Position numbers and translations under genes: made by a program
Source of the DNA: Microgenomates group bacterium
Lineage (GTDB): Bacteria; Patescibacteriota; Microgenomatia; UBA10105; UBA927
Reading direction: 5' to 3'
Assembly (NCBI GenBank): GCA_049287205.1
Contig: JBAQFJ010000001.1
Coordinates: forward strand, 575,041 to 639,040
DNA: 64,000 nucleotides
In this document: positions 11,284 to 64,000 of the stretch, one piece after another
Position numbering within the stretch: position 1 is the stretch's first letter
Layout of the letters: each line of letters starts with the position of its first letter
Notes under the pieces: model-generated
Seen by the model: only the letters and a program-made list of their open reading frames with translations
Told to the model about the DNA's origin: nothing
Database searches by the model: none

Positions 11284-11964
11284 TTAAAAACGGTATTTAA
11301 TAAGTGTCCAAAATGCGATAATACCATCTCTCCACGTCAGTTTTTTCCCTTCAGAAAACTTTCTGCCGTAATAGGAAATTGGCACTTCATATATTTGATA
11401 TCCTTTTTTTAACACCTTCGCCGTTATTTCCGGTTCCATGTCAAATCGCTTCGATTGTACTGTAATTCCTGAAAGTACTTCCTTCCGAAACGCTTTAAAC
11501 CCGGTTTCCAAATCTGTAATATTTGCGTTATACAATATATTGTTTACCAATGTGACAAATTTATTCCCCTGCGCATAGACAAACATCGTTGACAAATGCG
11601 GTCCTAAAAACCGGGAACCGTATACAATGTCAACTTGTTTGTTTTCAAACGGGGCAAGAAGCACCAAATAGTCTTTTGGATCATATTCCAAATCCGCATC
11701 CTGGAAAAGAATATAATCGCCCTTGGCTTTTGTAAGTCCAATGGTTACAGCGCTTCCCTTTCCTTCATTTTTCTGTTTGTATACGACCGTTACTTTTTTC
11801 TCCCAAGCAACAAGTTTCTTTTTCGTTCCGTCGGTTGATCCGTCATCCACAACGATAACCTGCTTGTTCCAATCAGGCAACTGCACCTCAGTCACACGAT
11901 GAAGTATTTCATCAATGGTATGAACCTCGTTATAGACAGGAATAATAATAGATACTTTCTTCAT
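11284..11964 (-). CDS. GT2 glycosyltransferase, DPM1/GtrB-like (polyprenol-phosphate sugar synthase-like)
   Basis: From internal ATG at 11964: MKKVSIIIPVYNEVHTIDEIL...VVDDGSTDGT...QDADLEYDP. The longer ORF-track form (to 12201) would overlap the upstream gene by 240 nt. The short form gives a 4-nt ATGA junction. Confidence 0.8.
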   Translation of the reverse strand: MKKVSIIIPVYNEVHTIDEILHRVTEVQLPDWNKQVIVVDDGSTDGTKKKLVAWEKKVTVVYKQKNEGKGSAVTIGLTKAKGDYILFQDADLEYDPKDYLVLLAPFENKQVDIVYGSRFLGPHLSTMFVYAQGNKFVTLVNNILYNANITDLETGFKAFRKEVLSGITVQSKRFDMEPEITAKVLKKGYQIYEVPISYYGRKFSEGKKLTWRDGIIAFWTLIKYRF

Positions 11965-13055: not shown

Positions 13056-14085
13056 ATACAGCAACTGTTTCGTGAGCAGTTTTTTCCCAACTAAATGTTT
13101 TTGCCCAAGCAATACTATCCATATGCATCTTTTTTTTGGCTGTCGGTGACAATGTAAACATACGAATAATAGTTTCCGCCATACCTTGCACATTGCCGGC
13201 ATCCATTCTCAATGAGGGCCCTGCAATCTCACTAAGACTTGAGTTATCTGCAACGACAACGGGACAGCCGCATACCATTGCCTCCAAGACCGGCAGTCCG
13301 AATCCCTCATAAAAGGACGGCTCTACTAAACAGGTAGCCATCGAATACAACCCGACTAATTCTTCCTGACTGACAAAACCTGTCATCGTGACATGATCTT
13401 CAAGATGCAAATCATGGATACATTGTTCGATTTTTTGTGTTTCCTGAAGTTGACTGTTTTTAAATGCTCCCCCAACTAGTACTAAGTGAGTATTTTTCTT
13501 TTTTTGAAGAACGAGTGCGAATGCGGATAACAACCCAAGCACATTCTTATTCCAATTCACATCGCCGACAAATAACATAAAATTTGCAGGCAATTGATAT
13601 TTTTCCTTGATTACCTGTTCCAATTGTTTACTCTGTTTGACTTCATATCCTGGGGTCGCGGCAGAATACACCGCATGGATTTTACTTTCAGGTATTCGCA
13701 CAATGCGTTCAACGTCTTTTTTTGAACATTTTGAGACAGTAATAATGCCTTCGACTCGACGAAGCGCGATCTTTTGCATGTTCCACTTCACTCTTCCCCT
13801 GATTCCTGCGGGGAATTGTTCAGGAAACACCAATGGGATCAGGTCATGAACGGTTACGACAGTCGGAATTGTTTTTTCCCATGGGAGCGTCAAAAAAAAC
13901 GGGTCGAAATAGGGATAATGCACTATTTCTGCAGTATCGGGTATTTTTTCTCCTCGAGTAAAAAAACTATACGAATGTTTAGATTCATACTGCTGTAACG
14001 CATCAATAAGATTTTTGGTGTATACACCCACTCCACGCATGGCGTGTCCTGAGGAAAGTGGTGTTGTGTCTATCGCAATATTCAT
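13030..14085 (-). CDS. GT4 family glycosyltransferase
   Basis: EGFGLPVLEAMVCGCPVVVADNSSLSEIAG (E-x7-E) and the upstream GGAFKNSQ Rossmann-like segment. Confidence 0.85.
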   Translation of the reverse strand: MNIAIDTTPLSSGHAMRGVGVYTKNLIDALQQYESKHSYSFFTRGEKIPDTAEIVHYPYFDPFFLTLPWEKTIPTVVTVHDLIPLVFPEQFPAGIRGRVKWNMQKIALRRVEGIITVSKCSKKDVERIVRIPESKIHAVYSAATPGYEVKQSKQLEQVIKEKYQLPANFMLFVGDVNWNKNVLGLLSAFALVLQKKKNTHLVLVGGAFKNSQLQETQKIEQCIHDLHLEDHVTMTGFVSQEELVGLYSMATCLVEPSFYEGFGLPVLEAMVCGCPVVVADNSSLSEIAGPSLRMDAGNVQGMAETIIRMFTLSPTAKKKMHMDSIAWAKTFSWEKTAHETVAVYETILAKK

Positions 14086-27036: not shown

Positions 27037-29439
27037 ATGGTGCGTCGCCATACGAATTTATATATCGTCATTCTCTTTTTCCTATCCCTCGTAGGATGTT
27101 TATTCTATAAAACCGTCATCCACGGACACATTCCTTTTCCGGGAGATCTTCTTCTTTCAGAGTACGCTCCATTTCGACACACTGACTATTTCGGATACGC
27201 CGCAGGGGGGATTCCCAGCAAAGGACAATATTTTGATGTCGTGCGGGAACTGTACCCATGGAAAACCCTTGTCATTGACGCCATAAAACAAAAAACATTG
27301 CCTTTATGGAATCCTTACAGTTTTTCAGGAACTCCACTACTGGCTAATTACCAATCTCAAGTATTTTACCCTCTCGGAATACTCTATCTTATCCTGCCTC
27401 AACCGGTCGCCTGGACAATTATGGTAATGCTACAAATATTTTTAGGACTTGTATTTATGTATCTGTTCGCACGTAGCATCGGCTTATCGCTCCCGTCAGG
27501 GATTATTGCTGCAATTACTTTCAACGTATCAAGTTTTTCCATATCATGGGTGGAATTTAACACCGTATGGCATACCATTCTTTGGCTTCCCCTGCTTCTT
27601 TATATTGTTGAGAGGGGAATAACACAAAAAAAATTGACCGTTAAACAGCAGCTGGTTTTTCTCTTTGCCCTCTTTTCCAGTATCACGGCCGGTCACCCGC
27701 AGGATTTTATTAATTCATTTCTATTTTTAGTTATATACACATCCTTGAGAATTATCTTCTATCCATCATGGAATAAAAAAGAAAAAATTTCTTTTACAAT
27801 AAAAACAATTGTTCCAATTACAGCTATTCCTTTCTTACTTGCATCCATTCAACTGCTGCCAACCGTTGAATTATTTAGAATTTCTGCCCGGGTTCCTCAT
27901 GATGTTGGTCATATTCTTTCAACTATGCTTGTACAACTTTGGCAACTACCTATGCTCATCTATCAGGATTTTTTTGGAAACCCCGCAACAAAAACATACA
28001 CAACACCCGATACGTATGTCGGAAAAACAATTTCTATCGGTGTTACCGGTTTTTCCTTGGCAGTATGGTCATTACTGAATAAACAAAAAAACTGGCATAG
28101 AACATTTTTTTTGATTACGGTTGCTGTCATGATTTGTATATCTGTTGCCTCTCCATTAACACAAATTTTGTATCAGTTTCCTATTCCCATTCTTTCCACC
28201 GGCACGCCGACAAGAAACTTATTTATTCTGCTGTTTGCCTTATCAGTCCTCGCGGGATTTGGGTTGGAAGCAATATATACAAAAAAATATACGGCAAAAA
28301 AACTCATTTTTGCTTCGATCACCCTTCTTATACTCACATGGATAGCTGCAATTTTTTTGCCGCATAGTTTTTCATTTCTTCTTCCGGGAGTTCTTAAAAA
28401 AAGCGCCATCATCATCACTGCACTCATAGGATGTTCTTTGTGCATGTTCTTGGCGTCAAAGTATAAAACAGTCTTTGTCTACGGTTTTATTTTGCTTGTG
28501 TTTGCTGAACTTGGATACGGGTTTATAAAATTTAATCCCTTTGTCCCTGCAAATTTTCTCTATCCAGAAAACGAGGCATTCACGTATCTGCAAAAAAATT
28601 CCGGCGTCAATCGCTTCTGGGGATATGGAACCGCGCGGTTTGAGTCAAATCTCAATGCGCAATATCACCTCTTTTCAACTGATGGTACTGATCCGCTGAA
28701 CATTAGATGGTACAACCAATTCATGCAGGCGACCAAAAACGGGAGTCTTGCGAGAGTATTTAACAGATCAACAAGATCTGATACTGGCCTTGCCGAAGGG
28801 TACGGAGCACGTGATCTTCCTGAAAACACAAACAGACTCCGTATTATGGATCTTTTAGGCATTCAATATGTACTGGACAGACCGGAAAATCCAAAAGATA
28901 ACGTTACTTTTGCATCCTCTCGTTTTACGCCAATGACAACACTTAAAAATAATTACACTATCTATAAAAACAAACTCGCCTATCCGAGAGCATTTCTCGC
29001 CTCTCAATATCAAACGTATAAAACCACAGATGATTTTGAAAAACAGTTTTTCGCTAAAGAATTTGATCCAAGAAAAACAATACTTCTTCCGGAAGAAACA
29101 CCAACACTGTCTCTTACTCAGGCAAGCTACGCAGATGCGACTATTGTGTCGTATACACCGAACGAAATTATTATTGAAACTAGCAGTGATGCAACACAGC
29201 TTCTTTTTCTGTCAGACACCTATGCTCCCGGTTGGGTTGCAACGATTGATGATCGGGATGCAGAAGTACTCAAAGCGGATTATGCATTTCGTGCAGTTGC
29301 AGTACCAGAAGGACGTCATGCCGTTCGATTCATATATGCGCCTGTCAGTGTGAAATTCGGATTCATTGGCACATGCATCGGTATTATTTCACTTGGAATC
29401 TATATTGGTCTTGGTATCGGAAGAAAAAAGAGGAAATAA
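27037..29439 (+). CDS. long YfhO-like polytopic membrane glycosyltransferase (GT-C)
   Basis: 800 aa. N-terminal HGHIPFPGDLLLSEYAPF...LPLWNPYSFSGTPLLANYQSQVFYPL motif as in YfhO-family proteins. C-terminal SDTYAPGWVATIDDRDAEVLKADYAFRAVAVPEGRHAVRFIYAPV module. Confidence 0.65.
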   Translation: MVRRHTNLYIVILFFLSLVGCLFYKTVIHGHIPFPGDLLLSEYAPFRHTDYFGYAAGGIPSKGQYFDVVRELYPWKTLVIDAIKQKTLPLWNPYSFSGTPLLANYQSQVFYPLGILYLILPQPVAWTIMVMLQIFLGLVFMYLFARSIGLSLPSGIIAAITFNVSSFSISWVEFNTVWHTILWLPLLLYIVERGITQKKLTVKQQLVFLFALFSSITAGHPQDFINSFLFLVIYTSLRIIFYPSWNKKEKISFTIKTIVPITAIPFLLASIQLLPTVELFRISARVPHDVGHILSTMLVQLWQLPMLIYQDFFGNPATKTYTTPDTYVGKTISIGVTGFSLAVWSLLNKQKNWHRTFFLITVAVMICISVASPLTQILYQFPIPILSTGTPTRNLFILLFALSVLAGFGLEAIYTKKYTAKKLIFASITLLILTWIAAIFLPHSFSFLLPGVLKKSAIIITALIGCSLCMFLASKYKTVFVYGFILLVFAELGYGFIKFNPFVPANFLYPENEAFTYLQKNSGVNRFWGYGTARFESNLNAQYHLFSTDGTDPLNIRWYNQFMQATKNGSLARVFNRSTRSDTGLAEGYGARDLPENTNRLRIMDLLGIQYVLDRPENPKDNVTFASSRFTPMTTLKNNYTIYKNKLAYPRAFLASQYQTYKTTDDFEKQFFAKEFDPRKTILLPEETPTLSLTQASYADATIVSYTPNEIIIETSSDATQLLFLSDTYAPGWVATIDDRDAEVLKADYAFRAVAVPEGRHAVRFIYAPVSVKFGFIGTCIGIISLGIYIGLGIGRKKRK

Positions 29440-29448
29440 CGTTCATTT

Positions 29449-31008
29449 TTAGGGAAGTGAATACCCGTATGCATTCATTTCATCAGAAATCTTTTTGGTT
29501 ATTCTTGGGGTAACTGTTTTTTGTATATACACACATGACGGTCTACCGGAATTTAAAAGCTGAATATAATTTTTGGCGTCAACACTAGATAACGCGAATG
29601 ACACAATATCTCCCGCCCGGCACGCACCCACATAAAAAGTTGGCGGATTGTTCTCAAACATTTCTTCCCGTGCAATCCGATACATTGAAAAAAATGGCAT
29701 GACAGATGTGTACCACGAATACTTGTATGCGGTCGGTACACCTGCAACAAAATAGACCGGGTCTTCCCACATCTCGACAAACATCGTATCACCGGGTTCT
29801 GAAAGCATTTTTATAATCTCCCCTTTTACAAAATAATTGCCGTACCCAGTTGTAAATTCTACTTGTGTATCAACGGTTTCTTTTATTAAAGATTGGGGAG
29901 AAAAAAATGTGAGTGCGGCAATCCATACAACGGCTATGCCAACTGTTGTTCTACACACGCTTTTTATTTTTTGTCCCTCCATATCTTTTATAAAAACTGC
30001 AATGGAAACGATAAATAATCCGTACCACGGGATCAAGTGAAACGCGTCATAATACATCACCCCCGCCGGTACGACTCGTATATTTGAAACGGCCAGTATG
30101 CCGAGTAACACTCCAACCAAACCATACCGTTTTTTCCACAGTAATTCATACACAACAAGACCGCAAAAAATAACGGATAAAACAAGTAATACATTTTGAA
30201 AAATAGTTCCAAACCCTTTTGCTATAACAAACACCGGATAAAAAACTATCTGCAAAAAGGTTTGTATATTCCACAGTTGCACGCCTACTTCCTGTTCTAC
30301 ATTTATCGTTATGACATTAAACACATATTCACGCGCGGGAAGAACGAGAATAGTCAGGACGTGAAACAACAGAAAAATACCTGCACTTATTCCAATGTAT
30401 TTCCTATGCGCTTTTTCTTTATATCCGATAACAAAAAGAATACCTAATACGATCAGTGCCCATGGCATAAAGGGTTCGCGCGTCCAAAAAATAAACCAAG
30501 AACAGACAGCCGCCAATAGGTATTCCCATGCATATATCCGTTTTTTTACTACTACCTGTCCAATCAGCATCATAAGATACATCATCGGATACACGATAAA
30601 CCCCTCGGCTAAGAACCTATCTCCAAACAGATAGAATTTTGTGCTTTCAAACACAACAAGAGATATAAACATAGGCAGTCCGAAACGAAAAATAAGAAAA
30701 GACCCGCATATGTTTGCAAACACGAGTGCGGCAATCCGGTGATACTTCACTAATTCAAACAGCGTAGTAGGATCTGTAGTATATTGAATTGCCGCGCTTA
30801 TATACGCCATGAATGGCTGATGATTAAAAAATATTTGACTGTACAGCTGTTTCCCCTGAAGAATGAAGTCCCCTGCACCGAAATTAAAACAATCATCAAA
30901 ACAACCAAATGCCCCAACGCGCTTCAGAAGAAAAAATGAAATACCAACAAAAATAATCTGATAAAAGAGTAGTAAAAAAATTCTACCAACAGGTATTTTT
31001 TCTCTCAT
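29449..31008 (-). CDS. polytopic membrane protein (unrecognised family; CFDDCFNFGAGDF motif)
   Basis: 519 aa. Many helices in the first 330 aa, then a soluble C-terminal domain. Convergent with the plus-strand YfhO gene across a 9-nt spacer. Confidence 0.45.
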   Translation of the reverse strand: MREKIPVGRIFLLLFYQIIFVGISFFLLKRVGAFGCFDDCFNFGAGDFILQGKQLYSQIFFNHQPFMAYISAAIQYTTDPTTLFELVKYHRIAALVFANICGSFLIFRFGLPMFISLVVFESTKFYLFGDRFLAEGFIVYPMMYLMMLIGQVVVKKRIYAWEYLLAAVCSWFIFWTREPFMPWALIVLGILFVIGYKEKAHRKYIGISAGIFLLFHVLTILVLPAREYVFNVITINVEQEVGVQLWNIQTFLQIVFYPVFVIAKGFGTIFQNVLLVLSVIFCGLVVYELLWKKRYGLVGVLLGILAVSNIRVVPAGVMYYDAFHLIPWYGLFIVSIAVFIKDMEGQKIKSVCRTTVGIAVVWIAALTFFSPQSLIKETVDTQVEFTTGYGNYFVKGEIIKMLSEPGDTMFVEMWEDPVYFVAGVPTAYKYSWYTSVMPFFSMYRIAREEMFENNPPTFYVGACRAGDIVSFALSSVDAKNYIQLLNSGRPSCVYIQKTVTPRITKKISDEMNAYGYSLP

Positions 31009-31064: not shown

Positions 31065-32810
31065 ATGAATTGGATGACAAAAAATACAGCCGTTCTCTTT
31101 CATCTTATCTGCATCCTCATGGTCGCGTTTACTTGTCGGTTTCTTTTCCTAGATACCATACCAACCGGTATCACAAATGATGAGTTAGATTACGTACTCA
31201 ATGCAAAATCCATCTGGAAAACAGGGAAAGACATGAGTCAACTTTGGGCACCTTACTTTTTAACACCTCCTACAGGAACATTCCCAATGGCAGAACTCCC
31301 ATCTGTTTTGATGGCTCCTTTTATCGGCCCGTTACCATTATCGTTATTTAACGCAAGATTCGGATACGCATTTTTTGGCTCATTTCTTTCCATACTTCTC
31401 TATTTTCTTGCCAACCGTCTGTTTCATTCAAAAAAAATCAGTTTTATTGTTGGTCTATGTATCGCCTTAAATCCTTGGGCGATATTTTTCAGCAGAACAG
31501 GATTAGATGCACCTATCGCTGTATTTTTTTATTATCTATTTTTCTTTTTTGCACTGTCAAAAAATTCATTCGTATATATTCTGTCGTTACTCTCATTTTC
31601 TATTGCATTTTTTTCCTATATCGGTACAAAGCTTATCGCTATACCAATCGCTCTACTGCCTCTGATTCTGCACGACAATAAAAGAAATCATCTACCAATG
31701 AAAGCGGGGATGCTTATCCTACTAGGCTTTGGATTAACCGTATTTTTTATATACAACGCACAACATGCATCAACAAAAACACGCATGAACGAACTATTTT
31801 TCCCAACGAGCACTATTGTTAGTTCCGACGTTGATAATGAAAGAAAGTTAAGTCTGCCCAGCCCCGTGACCCATCTTTTTGCAAACAAAGTCACTTCCTA
31901 CGTAAACATCTCGCTAACCAAATACCTCAATGCGTTTTCTCCAAATTTGTTGTTTTTAAACGGAGACACAAGATCCGCATTTTCTGTATGGACTCACGGA
32001 TATTTCTATATTATAGATATACTGTTTTTTCTATATGGCTTTGCGATCATGTTTCACACACATAAAAAACAACTTATATTTCTTCTTGGGATAATACTCT
32101 TAGCTCCAATACCAACAGTATTAAGTACCGTGGGAGTCAGCTATCCGATACGGTCATCATTGTTGTTTCCCTCACTTATACTCATCATCGGCTACGGCAT
32201 CAGCGCATTTACTGATACTATAAAAACTAAAAAAGTTTTCCTTCCAATTACTCTCCTTATCATATCGGTATACCTATTTTCCGCCGCTCATTTCCTGTTT
32301 ATCTATATATTCAGAAATCCAGTAGCCAATTCAGAAGGTTTTGATTTCAGCTCCCGTATTATTTCATCTTATCTTTTAAGGAGCAGCCGAAAAACTCCGG
32401 TAACGGTATTCACCGGTTCGCCAAAAACACTGTATAAACAATATATTTTTTATGCAAATACCTATGATAAAAACACAATGTATTCTTTAGCTAATTCTTC
32501 AAACGAAACTATTTTTTCAGTTCATGCGATAACGTTCAAAACATGTGCTCAATTTGATGAGGAAGATCTAAAAACTACATATATCGTGGAGCCGTCACTT
32601 GCTTGTCAGATTATACCGAAAAAAGATATAAAAATAGAAATTGCGCAACTCTCCGACGCCGGTACTATCTACAGAATATATAATGATCGACTCTGCAACC
32701 CATTACAGCGTCTTCCCTATCCAAGGCTCAATACTTTAAACGATTTGCATATTGAAAATCTGACTGACAACAACTTCTGTCGCCTCTATATAACAGGAGA
32801 AAATAAATAG
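31065..32810 (+). CDS. ArnT/PMT-like polytopic membrane glycosyltransferase
   Basis: FLDTIPTGITNDELDYVLNAKSIWKTGKDMSQ (DE + GKD motif); 581 aa; membrane N-terminal two thirds plus soluble C-terminal domain. Confidence 0.55.
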   Translation: MNWMTKNTAVLFHLICILMVAFTCRFLFLDTIPTGITNDELDYVLNAKSIWKTGKDMSQLWAPYFLTPPTGTFPMAELPSVLMAPFIGPLPLSLFNARFGYAFFGSFLSILLYFLANRLFHSKKISFIVGLCIALNPWAIFFSRTGLDAPIAVFFYYLFFFFALSKNSFVYILSLLSFSIAFFSYIGTKLIAIPIALLPLILHDNKRNHLPMKAGMLILLGFGLTVFFIYNAQHASTKTRMNELFFPTSTIVSSDVDNERKLSLPSPVTHLFANKVTSYVNISLTKYLNAFSPNLLFLNGDTRSAFSVWTHGYFYIIDILFFLYGFAIMFHTHKKQLIFLLGIILLAPIPTVLSTVGVSYPIRSSLLFPSLILIIGYGISAFTDTIKTKKVFLPITLLIISVYLFSAAHFLFIYIFRNPVANSEGFDFSSRIISSYLLRSSRKTPVTVFTGSPKTLYKQYIFYANTYDKNTMYSLANSSNETIFSVHAITFKTCAQFDEEDLKTTYIVEPSLACQIIPKKDIKIEIAQLSDAGTIYRIYNDRLCNPLQRLPYPRLNTLNDLHIENLTDNNFCRLYITGENK

Positions 32811-50807: not shown

Positions 50808-52349
50808 CTATTCTTTATAATGAACGAGTTTATATATTTTAACAACTGAGACATCCCAAACACCAGCAATCTCAGCCCTACCAAATCCCGCAACTTCCCA
50901 TAGTGAGTCCCCTAATGGCTGACAAAAAATATCTTCACAAACAATGAGTAACTGCTCTGTCACTGTTTTCCTTTGCGGATCATTGTCTGTGTTTTCAATA
51001 ACAACAGGCTTTTGATTCCATATCTCGAAAAAATACCGGTACGCGTGGTCTGAATTTCCGGTGGTGATGAGAGCAAAGTTAAATGGTTTTCCCTCCGTGT
51101 GACTCACAATTTCCCGTGAGATGTTTTCCACCTGAGACAACTGATTATTCGGCTCATAGATAAACGGCCGACCCTGCCAATTAAACAGGATGAGTGCTGC
51201 AATTGCGATACCGCCGACCATTTTTCCAATTTTTTTTATGTTCAATACATCATGAAGAAGTAGTGCGGTTAAGAAAAATGGCAACGGAAACAGCATACCA
51301 AAGTAATAGTCATAAATATTTTTTTTATACACACCAAAGAAAAACAGAGGCACTACCAACCAGAGAAGCATCAAGACAAATGTATTCATTTCCTTCTTGC
51401 TTCCCGTTTTCCTCGCCCGCACAAATCGAGTCAGTAGCGCAAACAGTCCGCCAAGTGACAGAAGAACTTCTCCCCATATCCACACATCACGGATAGGCCT
51501 CACGACACCTCCGAGCGCTCCCGCTTCAGGAATTCGTAAAAGAAACCTGCCAAACAACCGTACGTATACATCCTGAATATTTGAAACAAAATAGGAAAAA
51601 ACAAATCCTGTATCCTTTCCTTGAAATATGAATTCAAGAATTGCCCGCGAATTCAAAAACCCATGCCGTAGTTCAAATGCTAAAAATGGAGAAAATCCCA
51701 CTACTATACCAAGTATTCCAAATCCGATATCACGCGCTTTGATTTGTTTTATGGAATACGCAACGAGAAGCACTTGCGTCACAATAAGAAATAAATATGT
51801 GTAGTGCAATTGTATGCCAATCCCAGCGCAAAGTCCTACCCAAAATAATAACCTGAAATTGTTTTCCTCTTTGGCTTTCCATAGCATAAAAAGCGACAGG
51901 AGCGCAAAAAACGGAACGATATTAGGATTCCAAGAAGACCTCGAAAAGGATATCACAATGGGTGACACTGTATACAACGCCGCGGCGATAAGGCCGACCG
52001 GTTTTGAAAACCATTTTGATCCGACCAAGTATGTCAGATATACCGTTGCAATTCCAAACAAGGCGACCATTATGGCGGGGCCGACAGGGTTTAACCGAAA
52101 TGCCCACAGAAAAGGTGCCATAAAATAATAGTAGATTGGTCCCATAAAAAACCCACCAACTGATGCGGTAGGGCCAAGGAGGGTAAATTTTCCATCAACG
52201 ATCATTCGTTTTACGACCAGCGCATCACGACCTTCATCGCCAAGAAACGTCATGTACTCATTAATCTTATACAGTCTAAGATATGCGGCAACGCAAAGAA
52301 TAATAAGGAGTGGAAGCCAACGGATAATAAATTTCCAAAACCGTTTCAT
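50808..52349 (-). CDS. ArnT/GT39-like polytopic membrane glycosyltransferase ('DEGRD' family)
   Basis: FLGDEGRDALVVKRMIVDGKFTLLGPTASVGGFFMGPIYYY; 513 aa; paralogue of 25509..26984. Confidence 0.55.
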   Translation of the reverse strand: MKRFWKFIIRWLPLLIILCVAAYLRLYKINEYMTFLGDEGRDALVVKRMIVDGKFTLLGPTASVGGFFMGPIYYYFMAPFLWAFRLNPVGPAIMVALFGIATVYLTYLVGSKWFSKPVGLIAAALYTVSPIVISFSRSSWNPNIVPFFALLSLFMLWKAKEENNFRLLFWVGLCAGIGIQLHYTYLFLIVTQVLLVAYSIKQIKARDIGFGILGIVVGFSPFLAFELRHGFLNSRAILEFIFQGKDTGFVFSYFVSNIQDVYVRLFGRFLLRIPEAGALGGVVRPIRDVWIWGEVLLSLGGLFALLTRFVRARKTGSKKEMNTFVLMLLWLVVPLFFFGVYKKNIYDYYFGMLFPLPFFLTALLLHDVLNIKKIGKMVGGIAIAALILFNWQGRPFIYEPNNQLSQVENISREIVSHTEGKPFNFALITTGNSDHAYRYFFEIWNQKPVVIENTDNDPQRKTVTEQLLIVCEDIFCQPLGDSLWEVAGFGRAEIAGVWDVSVVKIYKLVHYKE

Positions 52350-52355
52350 AAATAA

Positions 52356-53528
52356 TTAGGTTCGCTTTTTCCAAATCACGCGAGAATACATAAAATAATT
52401 CCAAACAAGAAGCAATGAGGTACCTATCAAAAAATAAACAAAATAATACGTTTCTCCGAAAAGACGTGTTGCAAGTTCAATTGTCCCTGTTTGGATAACA
52501 ATAACACCAAACAACGATGTTCCGTAAAATTGGATAAGTTTCCCTAAATATTTCCCAACGGAATCAATCTTCTGATCCTTAAATGTCCAAATGTTATTAA
52601 AATTAAAATTAGAAAATATGGCAACGGCTGCACCGATAAGGTTTGCGATCGAGGCGGATAATCCGACAAGTTCCCGAAAAACAATAAGCAGCACCGCATT
52701 CAAGACAAATCCAATTCCTCCTACGACAAGGAATTTCCCAAACGATCCGTATCTGAGTTCGTGAATGAGTGAACCTGCAACATAGAGAAGTACATTTTTA
52801 ATATATTCCCCCGGCGCTATTTTTGAATGACCATACAGTCTGTCTGTAAAATGAATCGGCACTTCCACAATCTTCGCCCCGCTCGAAATAGCCTTATGTA
52901 AAAATGCTATCTGAAACACATACCCGCTGTACTCCTTCATCTCACCGGCAAACAGTTCATAATATTTTTTCTTATACGCGCGATACCCGCCTGTCCAATC
53001 ATGTGTTTTGGGAAAACGCAAGCCATAACGAACGATGGCATTACCCAATACACTAAAAATTTTCCGATGCAATCCCCAATTGTCAGGAATTGATCCACCT
53101 TTGATATATCTGCTTCCCACGACAAAATCCGCTCCGTCATCAATTGCCGCCATAAACAGTGGAACACGTGTCGGATCATGAGACAAATCACAGTCCATTT
53201 GGATAACAATTTCAGCTTTCAATTCTTCGACTGCATACGTCATCCCGCGAAGAAGCGCCCTTCCTAGTCCTTCTTTTTTTCCTGTGATGATATACGTGTC
53301 TTTGTGTGTTTTTATATATTCATTCACCACTGCTCCTGTACCGTCAGGTGACGAATCATCTACGATGACATAGGTGATTGCGTGATTTTTAATCTTTTTT
53401 GCTTCAACATGTAACGCATCAAGGAGCGTCACAATATTTTCGCGCTCGTTATACGTTGGGAGAATGATGACCGTTTTCATAGAAAACACCTTTTGGTCTA
53501 CCTCGACTATCAGACCCGTTCTCGCCAA
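52356..53528 (-). CDS. GT2 polyprenol-phosphate sugar synthase fused to C-terminal GtrA-like membrane domain
   Basis: N-terminal VIILPTYNERENIVTLLDAL...VDDSSPDGT...QMDCDLSHDP (DPM1-like). C-terminal 120 aa has four helices with FLVVGGIGFVLNAVLLIVF...NFNFNNIWTFKD (GtrA-family pattern). The likely start is ATG at 53480. Confidence 0.75.
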   Translation of the reverse strand: MARTGLIVEVDQKVFSMKTVIILPTYNERENIVTLLDALHVEAKKIKNHAITYVIVDDSSPDGTGAVVNEYIKTHKDTYIITGKKEGLGRALLRGMTYAVEELKAEIVIQMDCDLSHDPTRVPLFMAAIDDGADFVVGSRYIKGGSIPDNWGLHRKIFSVLGNAIVRYGLRFPKTHDWTGGYRAYKKKYYELFAGEMKEYSGYVFQIAFLHKAISSGAKIVEVPIHFTDRLYGHSKIAPGEYIKNVLLYVAGSLIHELRYGSFGKFLVVGGIGFVLNAVLLIVFRELVGLSASIANLIGAAVAIFSNFNFNNIWTFKDQKIDSVGKYLGKLIQFYGTSLFGVIVIQTGTIELATRLFGETYYFVYFLIGTSLLLVWNYFMYSRVIWKKRT

Positions 53529-57762: not shown

Positions 57763-58236
57763 TTAGGTAATTTTGGTATTGGTAATTGGTTTTCCCTGCA
57801 CCCAGTCATACCCGATATTTGAATCATCGTACTGAATTCTGCCTTCTTCTTTTGGATCATATGTTTTACTGGTTGCATATACAAAATCACACGGGCCTTC
57901 CAAAACCTTCATGCCGTGTGCGACACCTGCAGGAATTTTGAGTACAATATTATCCGGCTCCTCACCTAACACAAATTCCATTGTTTCCCCTTTTGTTGGA
58001 GACCCCTCACGAGTGTCATAGAGTGCTGCTTTAATTTTTCCTTTTACGCAGAACCACCAGTCAATCTGTGTCGTATGCAGATGCCATGCTTTGACAACTC
58101 CTTCCACCATGAATGAATGAGAAAGTTGTCCAAACCCTTCAGCAAAAAATTCATCCGTATTTCTGATAATTTCTTCAAAATATCCCCGTTCGTCGGGATG
58201 CCTCACCAATTTTTTTATCATCACGCCGTCAATCAT
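57763..58236 (-). CDS. rmlC: dTDP-4-dehydrorhamnose 3,5-epimerase-like cupin (RmlC-like; could alternatively be a FdtA-type 3,4-ketoisomerase)
   Basis: 157-aa cupin with HPDERGYFEEI and KAWHLHTTQ (cf. RGLHFQ) motifs, between rmlA and rmlB. It is shorter than the canonical RmlC. Confidence 0.55.
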   Translation of the reverse strand: MIDGVMIKKLVRHPDERGYFEEIIRNTDEFFAEGFGQLSHSFMVEGVVKAWHLHTTQIDWWFCVKGKIKAALYDTREGSPTKGETMEFVLGEEPDNIVLKIPAGVAHGMKVLEGPCDFVYATSKTYDPKEEGRIQYDDSNIGYDWVQGKPITNTKIT

Positions 58237-58970
58237 AGTGATCCTTTCTTCATTTTTTCAGCAACCTGATTATTTGCACGCAATAGTTCATCATAGGACG
58301 TTCCTGCATCCACCCACCAATCAATGATTTCGCACGTCAAATTTCCATCACGAAGGTACATATTATTCAAATCCGTGACTTCGAGTTCACCTCTTTTGGA
58401 AGGTGACAATTTTTTAATGTACTCAAATACTTTTTTGTCATATATATAAATTCCTGTCTGTGCGATATCTGATTTTGGATTTTCCGGTTTTTCTTCGATA
58501 GACAATACTTTTCCGGTAGCATCCACTTCAATAACACCGTAGTGTTTTGCATCCATATGCATATGAATACCGAACACTTTTGCGCCTACCCCCTGTTTTT
58601 CAAAAGATTCAACTGCCGGCCGCAAATCATGATCAAAAATATTATCTCCAAGGATAACCATCAATGGTTCATCATGAGTAAACTCTTCAGCGAGTGCAAT
58701 GGCGTCGGCAATTCCGCCTTTCGGATTATTTTGTACACCGTAATACAAACGCATACCAAATTCTTCACCGGAGGTTAACAGATTGGCAAACTGCGCAATC
58801 GATTCTCCACCCGTTGTCAACAATACCTCTTTCACGCCAGCGCGCTGCATCGCCTCAATAGGGTAATAAATCATCGGTTTGTTATACACTGGCAACAGAT
58901 GCTTGTTTGTCACAAGCGTCAACGGACGAAGTCGTGTTGCTAAACCTCCCGCAAGTATTAAGCCCTGCAT
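58233..58970 (-). CDS. rmlA: glucose-1-phosphate thymidylyltransferase (short form)
   Basis: MQGLILAGGLATRLRPLTLVTNKHLLPVYNKPMIYYPIE N-terminal signature; 245 aa; AAGGAG RBS at 58976..58981 (minus strand). Confidence 0.85.
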   Translation of the reverse strand: MQGLILAGGLATRLRPLTLVTNKHLLPVYNKPMIYYPIEAMQRAGVKEVLLTTGGESIAQFANLLTSGEEFGMRLYYGVQNNPKGGIADAIALAEEFTHDEPLMVILGDNIFDHDLRPAVESFEKQGVGAKVFGIHMHMDAKHYGVIEVDATGKVLSIEEKPENPKSDIAQTGIYIYDKKVFEYIKKLSPSKRGELEVTDLNNMYLRDGNLTCEIIDWWVDAGTSYDELLRANNQVAEKMKKGSL

Positions 58971-59013: not shown

Positions 59014-59262
59014 TTATGTCCACAGTATTGTTAAAAGCAATACAACTGCAACTGCACCAACAAGACAATATTCTATCACAACTTTTGGATGAAGATCTTC
59101 TTCAAGGCTGTGATAGATAATTCCCCAAATGACATAAGAGATTGCTGTGGCAACCCCGATGTACATTTGCATCACCTTATCGTTTGCAGCTCCCCAAAAC
59201 GTCCAAACACCCGTTACCAGGATAATCAGAAGTACCAGATAATTCACATGCGTTAATTTCAT
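59014..59262 (-). CDS. small two-helix membrane protein (hypothetical)
   Basis: 82 aa with two hydrophobic segments; 4-nt overlap with the upstream CAP-domain gene. Confidence 0.45.
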   Translation of the reverse strand: MKLTHVNYLVLLIILVTGVWTFWGAANDKVMQMYIGVATAISYVIWGIIYHSLEEDLHPKVVIEYCLVGAVAVVLLLTILWT

Positions 59263-60269
59263 AACAACACTCCACGTCTCACAATGGTAAGTGCGATAAA
59301 AAATGCCGTAAAGAACAAAATATGCGCGAGATTATGCCCGGCAACACGGGTGATTTTCTTTTTTGAAACAACAATGCCGTCAATAATTAAAATTCCAATC
59401 AAAAGGCCCATAAATAAAAATGCGACGTCACGGGTAACTGTCGGAATATTGATCATTGGCTTTTTCGTAACAGAGGAGAACATGGTCGATAATACATTCA
59501 AAACAGGTGTTGGCTTCACTGCGGCAACAGGTTTTATCTCAACTGGCGGAACAACTTGTTCTTCAACCTCTTTTGTCGTCTGTTCTCCAAGTTGTGTTTG
59601 TTCTGAATATACTTCCACAACCGCTGCTTTTTCCGTCACAACGGTTTGTACCGGCTTTTCAGCCGCAAGCTGTCCGCTTCCTGCGCCAAACATCTGCACA
59701 ACTAATGTTGTTTCTTCCCCGTTTAACACGCCGTTTACTATCGCAAAACCGATATCCTGATAGCTTGGTTTTATAATGTTGTCCTTATGAGTTGGCGAGG
59801 CCATCCATGCGTCAATAACCCCTTGACTCGTTGAAAAATTTTTTGCCAGATTTTCCCCTGCAACTGTGTACGTATATCCTGCTTGTTGAATAAACGTCCA
59901 CGGTGTTTTTCCCTCAGGACTGTTATGTGACCAATAATCATTTTGAAACATATCCTGTGCTTTCAAGGCTGCAGCCTGGGACAACGTCACATTGTACGTA
60001 AGCGGAGATAATCCCAGAGCCTGTCTTTTGGCATTTGTTCCACTAAGCAGCTGATCAACCCGGATATCTGTCGCGTACCCCAACACATTTGGAAATTCTC
60101 TATGCATAATCCGAATTCCAAAGTTAAAAATTGCAAAAATAAGCACGTAACAGAGCATTGAATCAAGATGTAATGCTTTCGCGTGATGATTATTCGAAAC
60201 GTGAGGAACAAAAAAATGACGTAGGAAATGCTCCATATAATTATCATACCTATTTACCCGTAAAAACAC
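59259..60269 (-). CDS. CAP/SCP/PR-1-like (YkwD-type) domain protein anchored by N- and C-terminal TM helices
   Basis: GYTYTVAGENLAKNFSTSQGVIDAWMASPTHKDNIIKPSYQDIGFAIV matches the CAP-domain GENLA...W..S..H..N signature. A Glu/Gln/Val/Pro-rich linker and a C-terminal hydrophobic helix follow. Confidence 0.65.
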   Translation of the reverse strand: MFLRVNRYDNYMEHFLRHFFVPHVSNNHHAKALHLDSMLCYVLIFAIFNFGIRIMHREFPNVLGYATDIRVDQLLSGTNAKRQALGLSPLTYNVTLSQAAALKAQDMFQNDYWSHNSPEGKTPWTFIQQAGYTYTVAGENLAKNFSTSQGVIDAWMASPTHKDNIIKPSYQDIGFAIVNGVLNGEETTLVVQMFGAGSGQLAAEKPVQTVVTEKAAVVEVYSEQTQLGEQTTKEVEEQVVPPVEIKPVAAVKPTPVLNVLSTMFSSVTKKPMINIPTVTRDVAFLFMGLLIGILIIDGIVVSKKKITRVAGHNLAHILFFTAFFIALTIVRRGVLL

Positions 60270-60624: not shown

Positions 60625-61241
60625 AGTATAACCGCTCCCTGACGAATAATACGATATGGCGTTACTGTACAATCCACAACTGTTGAAACAGTACCGATAG
60701 GACACACTCCCGGAACAACAAAATCAACCTGGCTCGTCAATTTCGGATTCAAATCTTCAAAGCGATATGGTGTGGGTTCACCGTGAAAATTTGCTGAAGG
60801 CCCAACGATTGGTATCTTTACTCCGTCTAAAATTCTCTGGAGCGTCTCATGTTTCGGATGCCGCATACCAACCGTATCACCGTCCCCGCAAATAGGGGAG
60901 TATATCAATTCTTTTTTACACATATCCACTATGGTCAATGCTCCCGGCCAATATATTTTCATAAGACGTCGTACAATATCTGACGAATGTTGATAAAAGG
61001 GGAACGCAGCCTCCATATTTGGCACCAGTACAGGCAATGCCTGCGTTGCGGGTCTTTTCCGAATTTTAAATAACCTATCAATGGATTCAGGCTTATCAAT
61101 CCTGCAACCGATTCCAAATGCGGTGTCTGTCGGAAAAATAATAATTCCTCCCGCATTCACAGTGGCAATTGCTTTTTGAATTTGTTCATCAATTGGTACC
61201 ATAGGTAATTTCAATCCTCCGTTCGGATTCAGAAGCGCCAT
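60621..61241 (-). CDS. tsaC: L-threonylcarbamoyladenylate synthase (YrdC-domain, TsaC type)
   Basis: AGGIIIFPTDTAFGIGC...KIRKRP...ALPVLV...WPGALTIV YrdC/Sua5 motifs; 206 aa (no Sua5 C-terminal domain). Confidence 0.8.
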   Translation of the reverse strand: MALLNPNGGLKLPMVPIDEQIQKAIATVNAGGIIIFPTDTAFGIGCRIDKPESIDRLFKIRKRPATQALPVLVPNMEAAFPFYQHSSDIVRRLMKIYWPGALTIVDMCKKELIYSPICGDGDTVGMRHPKHETLQRILDGVKIPIVGPSANFHGEPTPYRFEDLNPKLTSQVDFVVPGVCPIGTVSTVVDCTVTPYRIIRQGAVIL

Positions 61242-61653
61242 GGGTAAACCGAAAGTCTATTCGTTTCTCCGGCAAAAGCCTACCGAGCCGCTCAGCCCAC
61301 TCAATGATCACAATATTTTTCTCATCGTTAAACATTTCCTGTATTCCTAATTCTTGTATACTTTGTTCACTCGTTAACCGATAGAGATCCAGATGGAAAA
61401 AGAACCTGTCAATATTGGACAATTGTTGACGTCGTACAATAATGAAAGTAGGCGAGAGCAGGCGAGAGGTGAGGCCTAATCCCTTCGCAACCCCCTGAAC
61501 AAACGTGGTCTTCCCCATTCCTAAATCACCGTACAAACAGATAATATGCGGTGAGTTTTTACTCCCCTTTTGTATCAGGCGATCTGCCAACTTTTCGCCA
61601 AGTTTTTGAGTTTCTTCGGCATTTTTGGTAATAGTAATTTCAGACTTATCCAT
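61189..61653 (-). CDS. tsaE: tRNA t6A biosynthesis ATPase TsaE (YjeE)
   Basis: ICLYGDLGMGKTTFVQGVAKGLGL Walker A and the TsaE-typical N-terminal ETQKLGEKLA; 154 aa. Confidence 0.8.
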   Translation of the reverse strand: MDKSEITITKNAEETQKLGEKLADRLIQKGSKNSPHIICLYGDLGMGKTTFVQGVAKGLGLTSRLLSPTFIIVRRQQLSNIDRFFFHLDLYRLTSEQSIQELGIQEMFNDEKNIVIIEWAERLGRLLPEKRIDFRFTHGASESERRIEITYGTN

Positions 61654-61985
61654 GCGAACATTGCTCCAAACATGTCAATTATAGCATCACGCGGCTTCCC
61701 TTCACGCGTTGGAACGTAGGACTGATGCAATTCATCAGTTATTGCAAATAATACAGTAATGCAAAAAGGTAGCAACCAAATCCAGCTTTTTTGCATACCC
61801 AATGTATTTTTTACCGCCCTGTACGTGACCACATATAAAAACGCATATTCGATAAGATGCAGTGTCTTAAAAAACATAAAACTCAAAACATAAGAATCGG
61901 TGACAGCAATCTTTTGCCGTGCAGAGAATGCAAAAATCACTCCCATCCAGATTATAACCGGCAACCAGAAGCGCACCTGTTTCAT
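61575..61985 (-). CDS. VanZ-like family membrane protein
   Basis: 136 aa, 4 helices, ITDELHQSYVPTREGKPRDAIIDMFGAMFAW (DE.HQ..VP.R...D VanZ signature). The C-terminus overlaps the tsaE start by 79 nt out of frame. Confidence 0.65.
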   Translation of the reverse strand: MKQVRFWLPVIIWMGVIFAFSARQKIAVTDSYVLSFMFFKTLHLIEYAFLYVVTYRAVKNTLGMQKSWIWLLPFCITVLFAITDELHQSYVPTREGKPRDAIIDMFGAMFAWISLKLLLPKMPKKLKNLAKSWQIA

Positions 61986-62806
61986 ATGTCTTTAGTATAG
62001 CGAATTTTAATAACTGATACAGCAGCAAGAAGAGAAAGCCCAATACCGACAAACAATAATGCAATAATATAGGGTCGTTTCTCGGACAACATATCCATGC
62101 TCCCTGAAGCATTCTTTTGAGTTTCATTTGTCTGACCAAGTACAGTACCAGATGGTGCCATTTCATCAACAACCGTTACCTGTGAAAGAATTTGCACAAA
62201 GGATGTCGGTTTACTGGATGGGTTTATTGGTGTCGGCGTTGTTATCAAAACCGTTGATACAGCAGGGGTGTTGGTTGGACCTTTGGCAGGAGTTGGCGTC
62301 ACTGTCGGTGTTACTGTCGGTGCCATTGTTGCAGTGGGCAGTATCGGTGAGAATGATAAATAATTTGCAGATTGAAAACTTGTTCCGCACGCATCATTTA
62401 CCTGCAAACAGCCCCTGAGAAATAATAGTTTTATCTCATCGACAGCGGATGTCTTAATACGGCATGGAAGCGCACCCCTCCAAGATCCGTCATTTTGTAT
62501 CATAACTTGCGGCATATCAATCCAGGCGCTTGTATCATCTAACCATTTTTCTGTTGTTGTGTTATATGTCTGCCCCTCTGTCAAACTTGAACTTGTTTGA
62601 CCTATGCGACACTTAAGATAATACACTGCACCAGTCATTCCTCCGCTTGCGGTCGCCTGTACAGCAAAGGTATCACCAATGATTGGACTGGCCGAATCAA
62701 TTTCTAACGGAGTAAACACGACACCAGAAACGGCGAATGAAATAGGGATACGAAAGAAAAAGAAATAAACTACCACGCCAACGATTGTTGGAATTCGGGC
62801 AGACAT
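61982..62806 (-). CDS. membrane-anchored surface protein with Pro/Thr-rich linker (hypothetical)
   Basis: N-terminal signal-anchor, a globular region of about 130 aa, a PTATMAPTVTPTVTPTPAKGPTNTPAVSTVLITTPTPINPSSKPTS linker, and a C-terminal hydrophobic helix followed by a basic tail (KIRYTKDI). Confidence 0.5.
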   Translation of the reverse strand: MSARIPTIVGVVVYFFFFRIPISFAVSGVVFTPLEIDSASPIIGDTFAVQATASGGMTGAVYYLKCRIGQTSSSLTEGQTYNTTTEKWLDDTSAWIDMPQVMIQNDGSWRGALPCRIKTSAVDEIKLLFLRGCLQVNDACGTSFQSANYLSFSPILPTATMAPTVTPTVTPTPAKGPTNTPAVSTVLITTPTPINPSSKPTSFVQILSQVTVVDEMAPSGTVLGQTNETQKNASGSMDMLSEKRPYIIALLFVGIGLSLLAAVSVIKIRYTKDI

Positions 62807-62824: not shown

Positions 62825-63991
62825 TCAGTTATAGTTGACATGGAGATAATATGTCATAATTCCTCCATCTTTATGTTCAAGTCTTACATACTGCAAACGG
62901 CAATTTCCGGAATAAAAACCGCGATACACCGTACCATCCTGAACCGCTTTCACATCTAATGAAGATCCATCAATATCAATACCGTTGTGGGTTGGATACG
63001 GCCGGTACATTCTGACATACCAGGTATTCCCATACCCTTGGTTTAATTGTATCTGTGGCGCGATTGGCCAATCCCAACTGCCTGACGGATTAAACGCATC
63101 ACCTCCCGAGTCATTTACATGATCAACAGATTTTAAATAATTGAACGGATTTTCCGTTATGCCGTTTTTACTCACGGTAAAATGGAGATGCGTACCGGTG
63201 GAATTACACGATGAGCCGGAAATAACTGAGGCAATTTTATCTCCTTTTTTCACTTCCCCTACTTTTACCTCTGAACCGCCTCCCGCAATAATTCCCTGTA
63301 TTTGTTGATACTCAGCGCGTGCAGCCGCGAGCAGATTTTGAAAAATAGATTCCTGCCCTTTTGTCTGAGCAAGCAACATATCTTTATCCTGCTTTTGCTG
63401 CGCCAGTTGTTTATTTTTGTATTCGAGTTCTTTTTCCGCTTCCACTTGTTTTTGTTTCTTTTCTTCACGCTGCGTTTTCCTTTCGGCATAGTTGTTCTGT
63501 GTTGCTTTGTATTGCACAAATAACTTAAGATCCTGCTGTTGTACTTTTTTAATGTATTGAATTCTGGCAACCAAATCGCCGATATCTTTACTGAACATCA
63601 ATGACGTAAAATCACTTGACTTCACATATTCTTTATAAGATTCAGGTACGCGTTTTTGTAACAGCTCCGTCTGTTTTGTTAATTTAGTTTCCAGAATTTC
63701 CACTTCACCCGCAAGTTGATTGATTTCTGCAGTAAGGTTTGCGATAAATCCCTTGACACTCTGAATTTGAAATGTGGTCAGTTGAATTTGATTATTCAAA
63801 TAACTGATTTGTGAAGAAAGAGTATTTTTAGTATTTTGACAACTGTCTACCACTTGCTGATAACAGGTGACGGACTCTTCAACTGATTTTCCTTTGCAGG
63901 GATCGGACGAAGTACAATCAACGGCAAAAACAGGCAACTGCAACAACAGCGAGATGCAAAGCGTACAGATGATGACGACTATTCTCTTCAT
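62825..63991 (-). CDS. M23 family peptidoglycan metalloendopeptidase with N-terminal coiled coil (EnvC-like)
   Basis: Signal peptide, Cys-rich segment, and a long heptad-like Q/K/E-rich region. C-terminal LytM domain with GTHLHFTV (HxH) and DIDGS...GTVYRG motifs. Confidence 0.8.
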   Translation of the reverse strand: MKRIVVIICTLCISLLLQLPVFAVDCTSSDPCKGKSVEESVTCYQQVVDSCQNTKNTLSSQISYLNNQIQLTTFQIQSVKGFIANLTAEINQLAGEVEILETKLTKQTELLQKRVPESYKEYVKSSDFTSLMFSKDIGDLVARIQYIKKVQQQDLKLFVQYKATQNNYAERKTQREEKKQKQVEAEKELEYKNKQLAQQKQDKDMLLAQTKGQESIFQNLLAAARAEYQQIQGIIAGGGSEVKVGEVKKGDKIASVISGSSCNSTGTHLHFTVSKNGITENPFNYLKSVDHVNDSGGDAFNPSGSWDWPIAPQIQLNQGYGNTWYVRMYRPYPTHNGIDIDGSSLDVKAVQDGTVYRGFYSGNCRLQYVRLEHKDGGIMTYYLHVNYN

Positions 63992-64000
63992 GCATGACTT

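Follow-up and report, generated by a model that had tools for sequence, protein, structure and literature searches.

The window analysed here is a stretch of 64,000 nucleotides from a Microgenomates group bacterium (GenBank assembly GCA_049287205.1, contig JBAQFJ010000001.1, positions 575,041 to 639,040 of the forward strand), and the subject of this report is a gene close to its end, at 61982-62806, considered together with the large island of glycosyltransferase (GT) and sugar genes of the same window. A previous reading made from the letters alone (hereafter the sequence-only reading) had proposed that this open reading frame (ORF) encodes a surface protein made of a globular domain, a Pro/Thr-rich linker and a C-terminal transmembrane (TM) anchor, and that the linker is a candidate substrate of O-glycosylation. 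The ORF was recovered as a complete ATG-to-stop frame of 274 amino acids (aa) on the minus strand, and the translation and an AlphaFold2 model computed from 18 homologues both agree with the proposed layout. A spurious ORF or a wrong strand was considered and rejected, since the minus-strand frame is conserved and confidently folded whereas the plus-strand reading is interrupted by stops throughout. The product is identical to NCBI entry MFZ2025253.1 (WAV51_03155), annotated as 'hypothetical protein' in a Microgenomates metagenome-assembled genome, on a contig of 1.02 Mb.

Layout of the protein and of its family

The features of the gene and of its surroundings are collected in Table 1. Together, they support a Sec-type exported surface protein that has a C-terminal TM anchor and a disordered Pro/Thr segment on the extracytoplasmic side; the cleavage of the signal peptide, the topology and the disulfide bonds are predictions from the sequence and the AlphaFold2 model. 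In this model, the head (aa 30-152) is all-beta with a predicted local distance difference test (pLDDT) score of 94-97, aa 177-238 fall below 50 and are thus disordered, and a helix spans aa 244-273. Cysteines 66, 115, 133 and 140 of the head are invariant or nearly so in the alignment of homologues, which would fit an extracytoplasmic disulfide-bonded domain. Residues 28-245 are placed outside the membrane, so that a Ser/Thr-rich disordered region lies beside a folded domain in the extracytoplasmic part. The best-conserved module is formed by the TM helix and the tail, with identities of up to 83%, and the signal peptide is 40-63% identical in most aligned members (6-26% in the homologues P0011 and P0013).

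The linker described by the sequence-only reading is indeed present, and measures 46 aa rather than the 45 it had counted. With 14 Thr and 11 Pro, it contains 25/46 residues of Pro plus Thr (P+T), and Ser plus Thr account for 18/46; the binomial tail for this P+T content is ~7e-14 against a background of 9.9% computed on the 54 proteins of the window. Moreover, no other protein among these 54 exhibits a 30-aa stretch with at least 50% P+T, the runner-up reaching 37%. Slippage-prone DNA repeats in the linker were considered and rejected, none being detected by TRF. Two N-x-S/T sequons (NET and NAS) were also observed further on, in the juxtamembrane segment (aa 227-232, window 62111-62128), and an 'NASGS' element is shared with the homologues P0015 and P0016; the window encodes no detectable enzyme of the STT3/PglB type.

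A first search yielded 29 homologues of the protein, down to an E-value of 1e-11, and the head domain alone retrieved 119 representative clusters among 1.84 billion. A profile scan based on a 9-sequence alignment identified five loci in species-representative genomes, all from Candidatus Gottesmanbacteria or Microgenomates, as are all named loci harboring relatives. The protein has no Pfam match at E-values up to 1 and belongs to no NCBIfam family, and a Foldseek search of the head against the PDB returned only generic Ig-like, macroglobulin-domain, pilin and adhesin-repeat folds. Membership in the lamin-tail-domain (LTD, PF00932) family, a domain carried by some proteins at orthologous loci, was also considered, and the head of the protein has no PF00932 match. 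Among the 119 head-domain representatives, which are homologous and hence not independent in such counts, 105 present an N-terminal hydrophobic signal, 89 a C-terminal TM segment and 72 a run with at least 40% P+T; the signal/TM/P-T architecture is therefore a trait of the family. The protein is a previously uncharacterised member of a familiar class, that of surface proteins carried on low-complexity stalks, and its less ordinary aspects are the swapping of its head and a short V-L-G motif.

Table 1. Features of the gene and of its surroundings (window positions, with strand and basis of the assignment).
Feature	Position	Strand	Basis
Whole gene, type I membrane-anchored surface protein, 274 aa	61982-62806	-	ORF, homologues
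Signal peptide, aa 1-27 (MSAR, hydrophobic core, ...SFAVS)	62726-62806	-	Sequence; cleavage site predicted
Beta-sandwich head domain (aa 30-152) containing four conserved Cys	62351-62719	-	AlphaFold2, alignment
Pro/Thr-rich linker, aa 157-202, predicted disordered, candidate O-glycosylation region	62201-62338	-	Composition, AlphaFold2
V-L-G motif, aa 222-224, within the disordered juxtamembrane segment aa 203-243	62135-62143	-	Family alignment
C-terminal TM helix, aa 246-266, YIIALLFVGIGLSLLAAVSVI	62009-62071	-	Sequence, AlphaFold2
Short basic cytoplasmic tail KIRYTKDI, aa 267-274	61985-62008	-	Sequence
PcsB-like coiled-coil and M23 peptidoglycan hydrolase, 18-nucleotide gap to the gene	62825-63991	-	Upstream neighbour
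VanZ-like membrane protein, start overlapping the stop of the gene (ATGA)	61575-61985	-	Downstream neighbour
Glycan island (rmlACBD-type genes, GTs, flippases, GT-C proteins)	1591-58970	-	Pfam
GT2 and GtrA-TM fusion, candidate polyprenyl-phosphate-sugar synthase (GtrB/PgfS/Ppm1-like role)	52356-53528	-	Pfam
PMT_2/PMT-scoring GT-C with DE after TM1, directly downstream of the GT2+GtrA gene	50808-52349	-	Pfam, synteny
YfhO-family GT-C, 114.6 bits	27037-29439	+	Pfam
YfhO-family GT-C, 63.4 bits	33732-35996	-	Pfam
YfhO-family GT-C, 80.2 bits	37030-39369	-	Pfam
GT-C proteins with D-E after TM1	starting at 6724, 16785, 20918, 22539, 31065, 47310, 50808		

Exchange of the head domain

A first property overlooked by the sequence-only reading is that the head is swapped among close genomes while the signal peptide and the anchor remain constant. 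In the two closest genomes (loci L002 and L005), flanking proteins are 73-97% identical and the signal peptides and C-terminal 74 residues 59-76% identical to those of the window, whereas the heads have no detectable similarity to that of our protein. The more distant locus L001 (flanking proteins 56-90% identical) encodes the same head, with 63% identity. Similarly, the juxtamembrane region (aa 201-243) is 65% identical to that of P0015 and P0016, whose heads are only 19-24% identical to the one considered here, and 13-30% identical to that of homologues sharing the same head. The signal peptide is kept even in locus variants whose heads are unrelated.

Profile comparisons with hhalign indicate that the head of our protein (type A) and a second type (B) are remote homologues, with a probability of 86%, and that type A and the LTD-type heads of the locus variants are unrelated (0.4%). 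Proteins with two heads also exist, in A+LTD or A+B combinations. These alignments point to a cassette exchange of heads on a constant scaffold, a pattern that would be typical of exposed proteins under diversifying pressure and that marks the protein as a probable determinant of strain specificity.

Gene order, glycan island and proposed modification of the stalk

Nearly all genes of the window are encoded on the minus strand, so that the gene lies on the transcriptional 5' (upstream) side of the island and not at its 3' end, as the sequence-only reading had stated. Starting from position 64000, the order of transcription is the PcsB-like hydrolase gene, our gene, vanZ, tsaE, tsaC, a TsaD-family gene (probably tsaB), a CAP gene, a DUF5656-like ORF and rmlA (58233-58970), the first sugar gene, ~3 kb away. 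The tight spacing of these genes suggests co-transcription, and the ATGA overlap with vanZ suggests translational coupling; a promoter or terminator proper to the gene was rejected, since consensus scans remained at background level.

In relatives, ftsE and ftsX precede the PcsB-like hydrolase gene, and a block of the order prfB-ftsE-ftsX-pcsB-like hydrolase-homologue-vanZ-tsaE is conserved. Indeed, in each of the 10 distinct related loci with a visible upstream side, the gene is preceded by ftsE-ftsX-pcsB-like, immediately in eight of them and with one or two small ORFs in between in the distant L004 and L007. Downstream, the related loci encode vanZ and/or tsaE, and the contig of P0029, whose upstream side is cut off, harbors vanZ and CAP genes. 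In loci from Gottesmanbacteria, the block continues into rmlA and further up to the GT2+GtrA and PMT_2 genes, this last pair being 58-91% identical.

Some observations on the neighbours themselves are worth reporting. The catalytic domain of the PcsB-like hydrolase is of the M23 type in the window, L004 and L007 and Peptidase_C39_2-like in L002, L003 and L005 (L002:8778-9986, L003:8753-9961 and L005:3707-4915, compared with 62825-63991 on the minus strand of the window), while the coiled coil is kept; by tblastn, only 228-252 of the 388 residues align with L001, L002 and L005. The hydrolase may thus be a second gene of the block undergoing module exchange. The VanZ-like ORF overlaps tsaE (61189-61653) by 79 nucleotides in a different frame (61575-61653), and the start of tsaE looks genuine, given that its TsaE Pfam match begins at residue 10; gene calls on related or identical contigs (L006, L002) omit VanZ or shorten TsaE.

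The glycan island covers ~58 kb and may extend past the start of the window. It encodes 12 GT2 and three GT4 enzymes, two Wzx-like flippases, one methyltransferase and 21 polytopic GT-C-like proteins, as well as nucleotide-sugar enzymes that match, at the Pfam level, the RmlA, RmlC, RmlB and RmlD families, UDP-glucose dehydrogenase and a UXS-like dehydratase. Among the 21 GT-C-like proteins, 12 score above Pfam cut-offs, of which six match PMT_2, three YfhO and one each PMT, GT87 and PTPS_related, and seven present an Asp-Glu pair just after TM1, which confirms and exceeds the 'at least five' DE-motif enzymes of the sequence-only reading.

Such a number of polytopic GT-C-like proteins, predicted to have 7-11 TM helices each, represents an exceptional concentration for a region of 58 kb. 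Six of them (starting at 11961, 15667, 19254, 29449, 31065 and 45742) have no Pfam match at all, and several of these exhibit DE or DD after TM1. The only two sizeable plus-strand genes, 27037-29439 (YfhO) and 31065-32810 (DE motif, no Pfam match), are located on either side of the minus-strand GT-C gene 29449-31008, which suggests a local inversion or insertion within the island. At 11284-14085 on the minus strand, the longest-ORF calls overlap (11961-13202 overlaps 11284-12201 by 241 nucleotides and 13030-14085 by 173 nucleotides) and the GT2 Pfam match of 11284-12201 begins only at residue 84; the true start codons in this region probably lie further downstream than listed.

How the stalk could be modified has to be considered in the light of these enzymes. 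The sequence-only reading had invoked O-mannosylation by PMT-type enzymes, for which the window offers little ground. Only two of its proteins score on PF02366, with 28.2 and 30.4 bits, no window protein matches PF16192 (PMT_4TMC), and none is demonstrably a GT39 O-mannosyltransferase, which would combine PF02366 and PF16192. Genes for GDP-mannose synthesis are absent from these 64 kb of a 1.02-Mb genome, the sugar genes matching families of rhamnose, glucuronate and xylose precursors, and neither the PDB nor NCBIfam provides an assignment. The more general proposal of an O-glycosylated stalk is reasonable, given the exported disordered stalk and the presence of the enzyme classes concerned. 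The window encodes a candidate membrane GT-A enzyme (GT2+GtrA) and both YfhO and PMT_2 GT-C proteins above Pfam cut-offs, as counterparts by class rather than established orthologues of GtrB, PgfS and PgtC2. Together with the further GT-C-like proteins, they represent a machinery for glycosylation outside the cytoplasm that depends on lipid-phosphate sugars. The three YfhO proteins, which the sequence-only reading had not singled out, are at least as good candidates for glycosylation of the stalk as those of the PMT_2 type.

Precedents exist in monoderm bacteria, in which disordered regions of surface or secreted proteins that are rich in Thr, Ser and Pro are glycosylated (PMC12041528, PMC5856776, PMC6151902). 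The streptococcal protein-modifying enzymes are GT-Cs of the YfhO family, which includes the protein O-glycosyltransferases PgtC2 and PgfM1 (PMC12041528), and a target of the Pgf system is the adhesin Cnm, in its Thr-rich region (PMC5856776). Loss of the glycans leaves the streptococcal disordered regions open to proteolysis (PMC12041528; PMC5856776). In Caldicellulosiruptor bescii, deletion of a single GT39 gene removed all detectable glycosylation from secreted cellulases, whose linkers are made of alternating Thr-Pro and whose linker O-glycosylation was predicted, not mapped (PMC6151902). By analogy with these cases, O-glycosylation of the stalk is plausible, with chances that we judge close to even.

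According to the reading that we prefer, the protein would be exported by the Sec pathway, its signal peptide would be removed, and the single C-terminal TM helix would anchor it with the basic tail in the cytoplasm. The disulfide-containing beta-sandwich head would be held off the membrane by a disordered stalk of ~90 residues, formed by the 46-aa linker and the juxtamembrane V-L-G segment. Signal peptide, stalk type and anchor represent the constant scaffold, and the head is exchangeable between strains, as expected for a protein that hosts, phages or competitors encounter. Most likely, the Pro/Thr stalk would act as an extended, protease-resistant spacer across the cell wall, and would probably be O-glycosylated on Thr/Ser outside the membrane. 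To this end, the GT2+GtrA enzyme would load a sugar on polyprenyl phosphate, the lipid-linked sugar would then be flipped, and a GT-C of the YfhO or PMT_2 type would move it to the disordered region, as in streptococci. To this reading as a whole, an exchangeable-head surface protein on a disordered, probably O-glycosylated stalk, we assign a probability of about 0.45. Its gene, architecture, disorder, family distribution, synteny, head swapping and motif conservation, as well as the presence of the enzyme classes, are shown by the analysis, and the removal of the signal peptide, the span across the wall, the glycosylation and the choice of enzyme and sugar are inferred.

Several observations weigh against it and favor, in part, a rival explanation in which the Pro/Thr stretch of the surface protein acts as a rigid spacer without modification, the GT-C/GT2 island is devoted only to building and decorating wall glycopolymers or glycolipids, and the proximity of gene and island is coincidental. 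Pro/Thr linkers can be plain spacers. The gene is not part of the island but belongs to a housekeeping block of division and t6A genes, and six genes lie between it and the first sugar gene (vanZ, three genes of the t6A pathway, the CAP gene and the ORF of a small membrane protein). The two Wzx-like flippases of the island and its 15 enzymes of the GT2 and GT4 families are typical of polysaccharide pathways, so that much of the island probably builds glycopolymers and not glycoproteins. Teichoic acids, lipids and polysaccharides are further targets of YfhO and PMT_2/ArnT-like enzymes, and YfhO homologues of Bacillus and Listeria glycosylate teichoic acids (PMC12041528). Furthermore, no GT-C of the window could be assigned to a protein-specific family: phmmer searches against the PDB gave nothing for the two PF02366-scoring proteins, and all NCBIfam matches of the GT-Cs were far below cut-off. 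The NCBIfam match to PgfS reached 51.8 bits for a cut-off of 500.

The composition of the linker is also less singular once related loci are considered, as about 100 kb of them contain two unrelated P/T-rich ORFs (L003:12765-14396 and L007:12095-13078); such tracts are therefore not unique to the family. The first of these, on the plus strand 1.5 kb downstream of the distant homologue P0017, is a 544-aa ORF with a PTETPTPTPT... repeat that reaches 87% P+T in 30 aa. Finally, no island is obvious beside the gene in distant relatives: L003 and L004 harbor rearranged glycan genes, the 10 kb around the gene in L007 contain a single epimerase-family gene and a weak PMT_2-like match (29% identity) but no main gene of the island, and the most distant relatives keep only the core ftsEX-hydrolase-homologue-vanZ/tsaE. 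On the other side, monoderm systems with GtrB-like and YfhO/PMT-type enzymes glycosylate precisely such exposed Ser/Thr/Pro-rich disorder and shield it against proteolysis (PMC12041528, PMC5856776, PMC6151902), and it would be surprising if none of the 21 GT-C paralogues accepted a protein. The unmodified spacer is thus a possible explanation, with the odds somewhat against it.

The synteny of the distant relatives shows that the closest genomic tie of the gene is to the division hydrolase module and not to the island. The protein might be an accessory of the FtsEX-PcsB division hydrolase machinery, acting for example through its TM helix and tail, with stalk and head modulating access to the wall, a role that would be compatible with glycosylation. 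The linkage to ftsE-ftsX-pcsB-like in 10/10 loci includes distant members at 27-45% identity, and the 18-nucleotide gap to the hydrolase gene, the stop/start overlap with vanZ and the superior conservation of TM helix and tail also argue for it. In addition, streptococcal MapZ, RodZ and FtsQ contain Ser/Thr-rich disorder, and glycosylation raises MapZ and RodZ levels (PMC12041528). However, close relatives carry unrelated domains in place of the head, a finding difficult to square with a conserved extracellular partner, synteny inside one candidate phylum may merely reflect inherited gene order, and the protein matches no known divisome family. We therefore regard a role in division as unlikely.

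The V-L-G motif and comparison with known systems

The second property missed by the sequence-only reading is a short [V/I]-L-G motif located in the disordered region and conserved far above chance. From the P/T tract to the TM helix, the members of the family no longer align except at this motif, which often reads G-x-V-L-G-E. It was found at most 80 aa upstream of the TM helix in 87 of the 114 members having a C-terminal TM helix, compared with 3.3% in shuffles of the same segments, at a distance of 7-58 aa (median 27 aa), and some members carry two copies. An artefact due to an internal ribosome-binding site was rejected, as the codons (gta ctt ggt) form no Shine-Dalgarno-like sequence. It could serve in proteolysis or shedding of the protein, in its attachment or in docking.

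The motif could be a processing or sorting signal, at which the ectodomain would be cut and then either shed or handed over to the wall, the TM anchor being transient as in sortase or archaeosortase substrates. The frequency of the motif relative to shuffled segments, its conservation amid unalignable, disordered flanks and the resemblance of motif, TM helix and basic tail to known C-terminal sorting signals are consistent with such a role, as is a sortase gene 6 kb upstream of P0017 in the locus of one relative, along with a gene for a DUF4012 protein (L003:1948-4133). However, the members counted are homologous and not independent, and the distance of the motif to the TM helix differs from that of LPXTG, PGF and PEP signals, which are adjacent to it. 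The sequence is not of the LPXTG type, the sorting-signal models of NCBIfam, including LPXTG, gave no match to the protein, and the window encodes no sortase. A general sorting tag on unrelated cargo is not supported either, as a profile of the C-terminal module retrieved only three more fragments of the same family; in a scan of all ORFs of the loci covered, the motif occurred in hydrophilic surroundings in this family alone, chance matches in enzymes aside. A processing signal is for these reasons decidedly unlikely. The CAP/SCP-domain protein at 59259-60269 (minus strand), syntenic with our gene in nearly all loci, harbors an N-terminal TM helix followed by 'NVLGYATD', then a low-complexity spacer rich in Val, Pro and Glu, and ends in two TM helices; its V-L-G may be due to chance, the tripeptide being fairly often expected at such length by a rough estimate. 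Least probable of all is a more far-reaching reading, in which the stalk would carry both a heavily O-glycosylated tract and an undescribed [V/I]-L-G motif for processing, wall attachment or FtsEX-PcsB/VanZ docking, under a swappable head for strain-specific host recognition or for phage evasion.

Bacteria of the Candidate Phyla Radiation (CPR), or Patescibacteria, are ultra-small and mostly uncultivated. Their surface proteins are obvious candidates for host recognition and, to our knowledge, almost none has been characterised. All members cultivated so far are described as episymbionts attached to other microbes (10.1101/2024.11.25.624915). The protein is a compact candidate in this respect, with 274 aa, one folded head and a 90-residue disordered stalk encoded near a very large set of GT-Cs. 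If the stalk is glycosylated, it would be the first glycoprotein reported in the CPR as far as our limited literature search goes, which found no study of protein glycosylation in this group and, given its extent, is only a weak negative; if not, the protein is an ordinary surface protein that spans the wall, from a lineage of which little is known. Co-expression with single GT-C genes could, in addition, assign functions to some of the 21 paralogues.

Among known systems, LPXTG adhesins of Gram-positive bacteria resemble our protein in their variable, adhesin-like head of the beta-sandwich type, in their Pro-rich spacer and in the hydrophobic segment with a basic tail at the C-terminus. They differ by their sorting motif and their dependence on a sortase, since the protein contains no LPXTG-type motif and no PF04203 protein is encoded in the window, a sortase being present only in the distant L003; the simplest reading is that the protein is retained by the TM helix itself. 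The haloarchaeal S-layer glycoprotein consists of a signal peptide, a large ectodomain, an O-glycosylated Thr-rich stalk and a C-terminal PGF-CTERM anchor processed by an archaeosortase. The order of modules (signal peptide, ectodomain, Thr-rich stalk, short motif, TM helix, basic tail) is the same in both cases, whereas our protein is small (274 aa), presents a single head, is not evidently lattice-forming and lacks a PGF motif, its V-L-G is not beside the TM helix, and no archaeosortase or exosortase gene was seen.

GT39 systems, such as Cbes_1864 of C. bescii acting on CelA linkers and the actinobacterial Ppm1/Pmt, resemble our case by the alternating Thr-Pro of their substrates, the logic of a lipid-phosphate-sugar donor and the proposed protection of linkers from proteolysis, and the window encodes PF02366/PF13231-scoring GT-Cs with DE after TM1. 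On the contrary, their substrates are secreted multidomain enzymes or lipoproteins and not a TM-anchored display protein, and the GT-Cs of the window reach only 28-30 bits on PF02366, lack PF16192 and have no GDP-mannose genes beside them in the window.

Mechanistically, the closest known case would be that of the glycosylated Ser/Thr-rich disordered regions of streptococci modified by the PgtC2/Pgf class. The position of the segment differs, as it is Pro/Thr-rich and lies between head and C-terminal TM helix in our protein and is a poly-Ser/Thr stretch at the C-terminal end in streptococci, neither substrate nor enzymes are recognisable orthologues, and the organism is a CPR bacterium. In both cases, an extracytoplasmic disordered segment rich in hydroxy amino acids lies beside a folded domain of a membrane-tethered protein, and a GtrB/PgfS-type membrane GT-A enzyme is encoded along with YfhO/PMT_2 GT-Cs that have an acidic motif in an outer loop. 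Moreover, several streptococcal substrates are division or wall proteins, and our gene is located beside ftsEX-pcsB, in an organism assumed to be monoderm-like.

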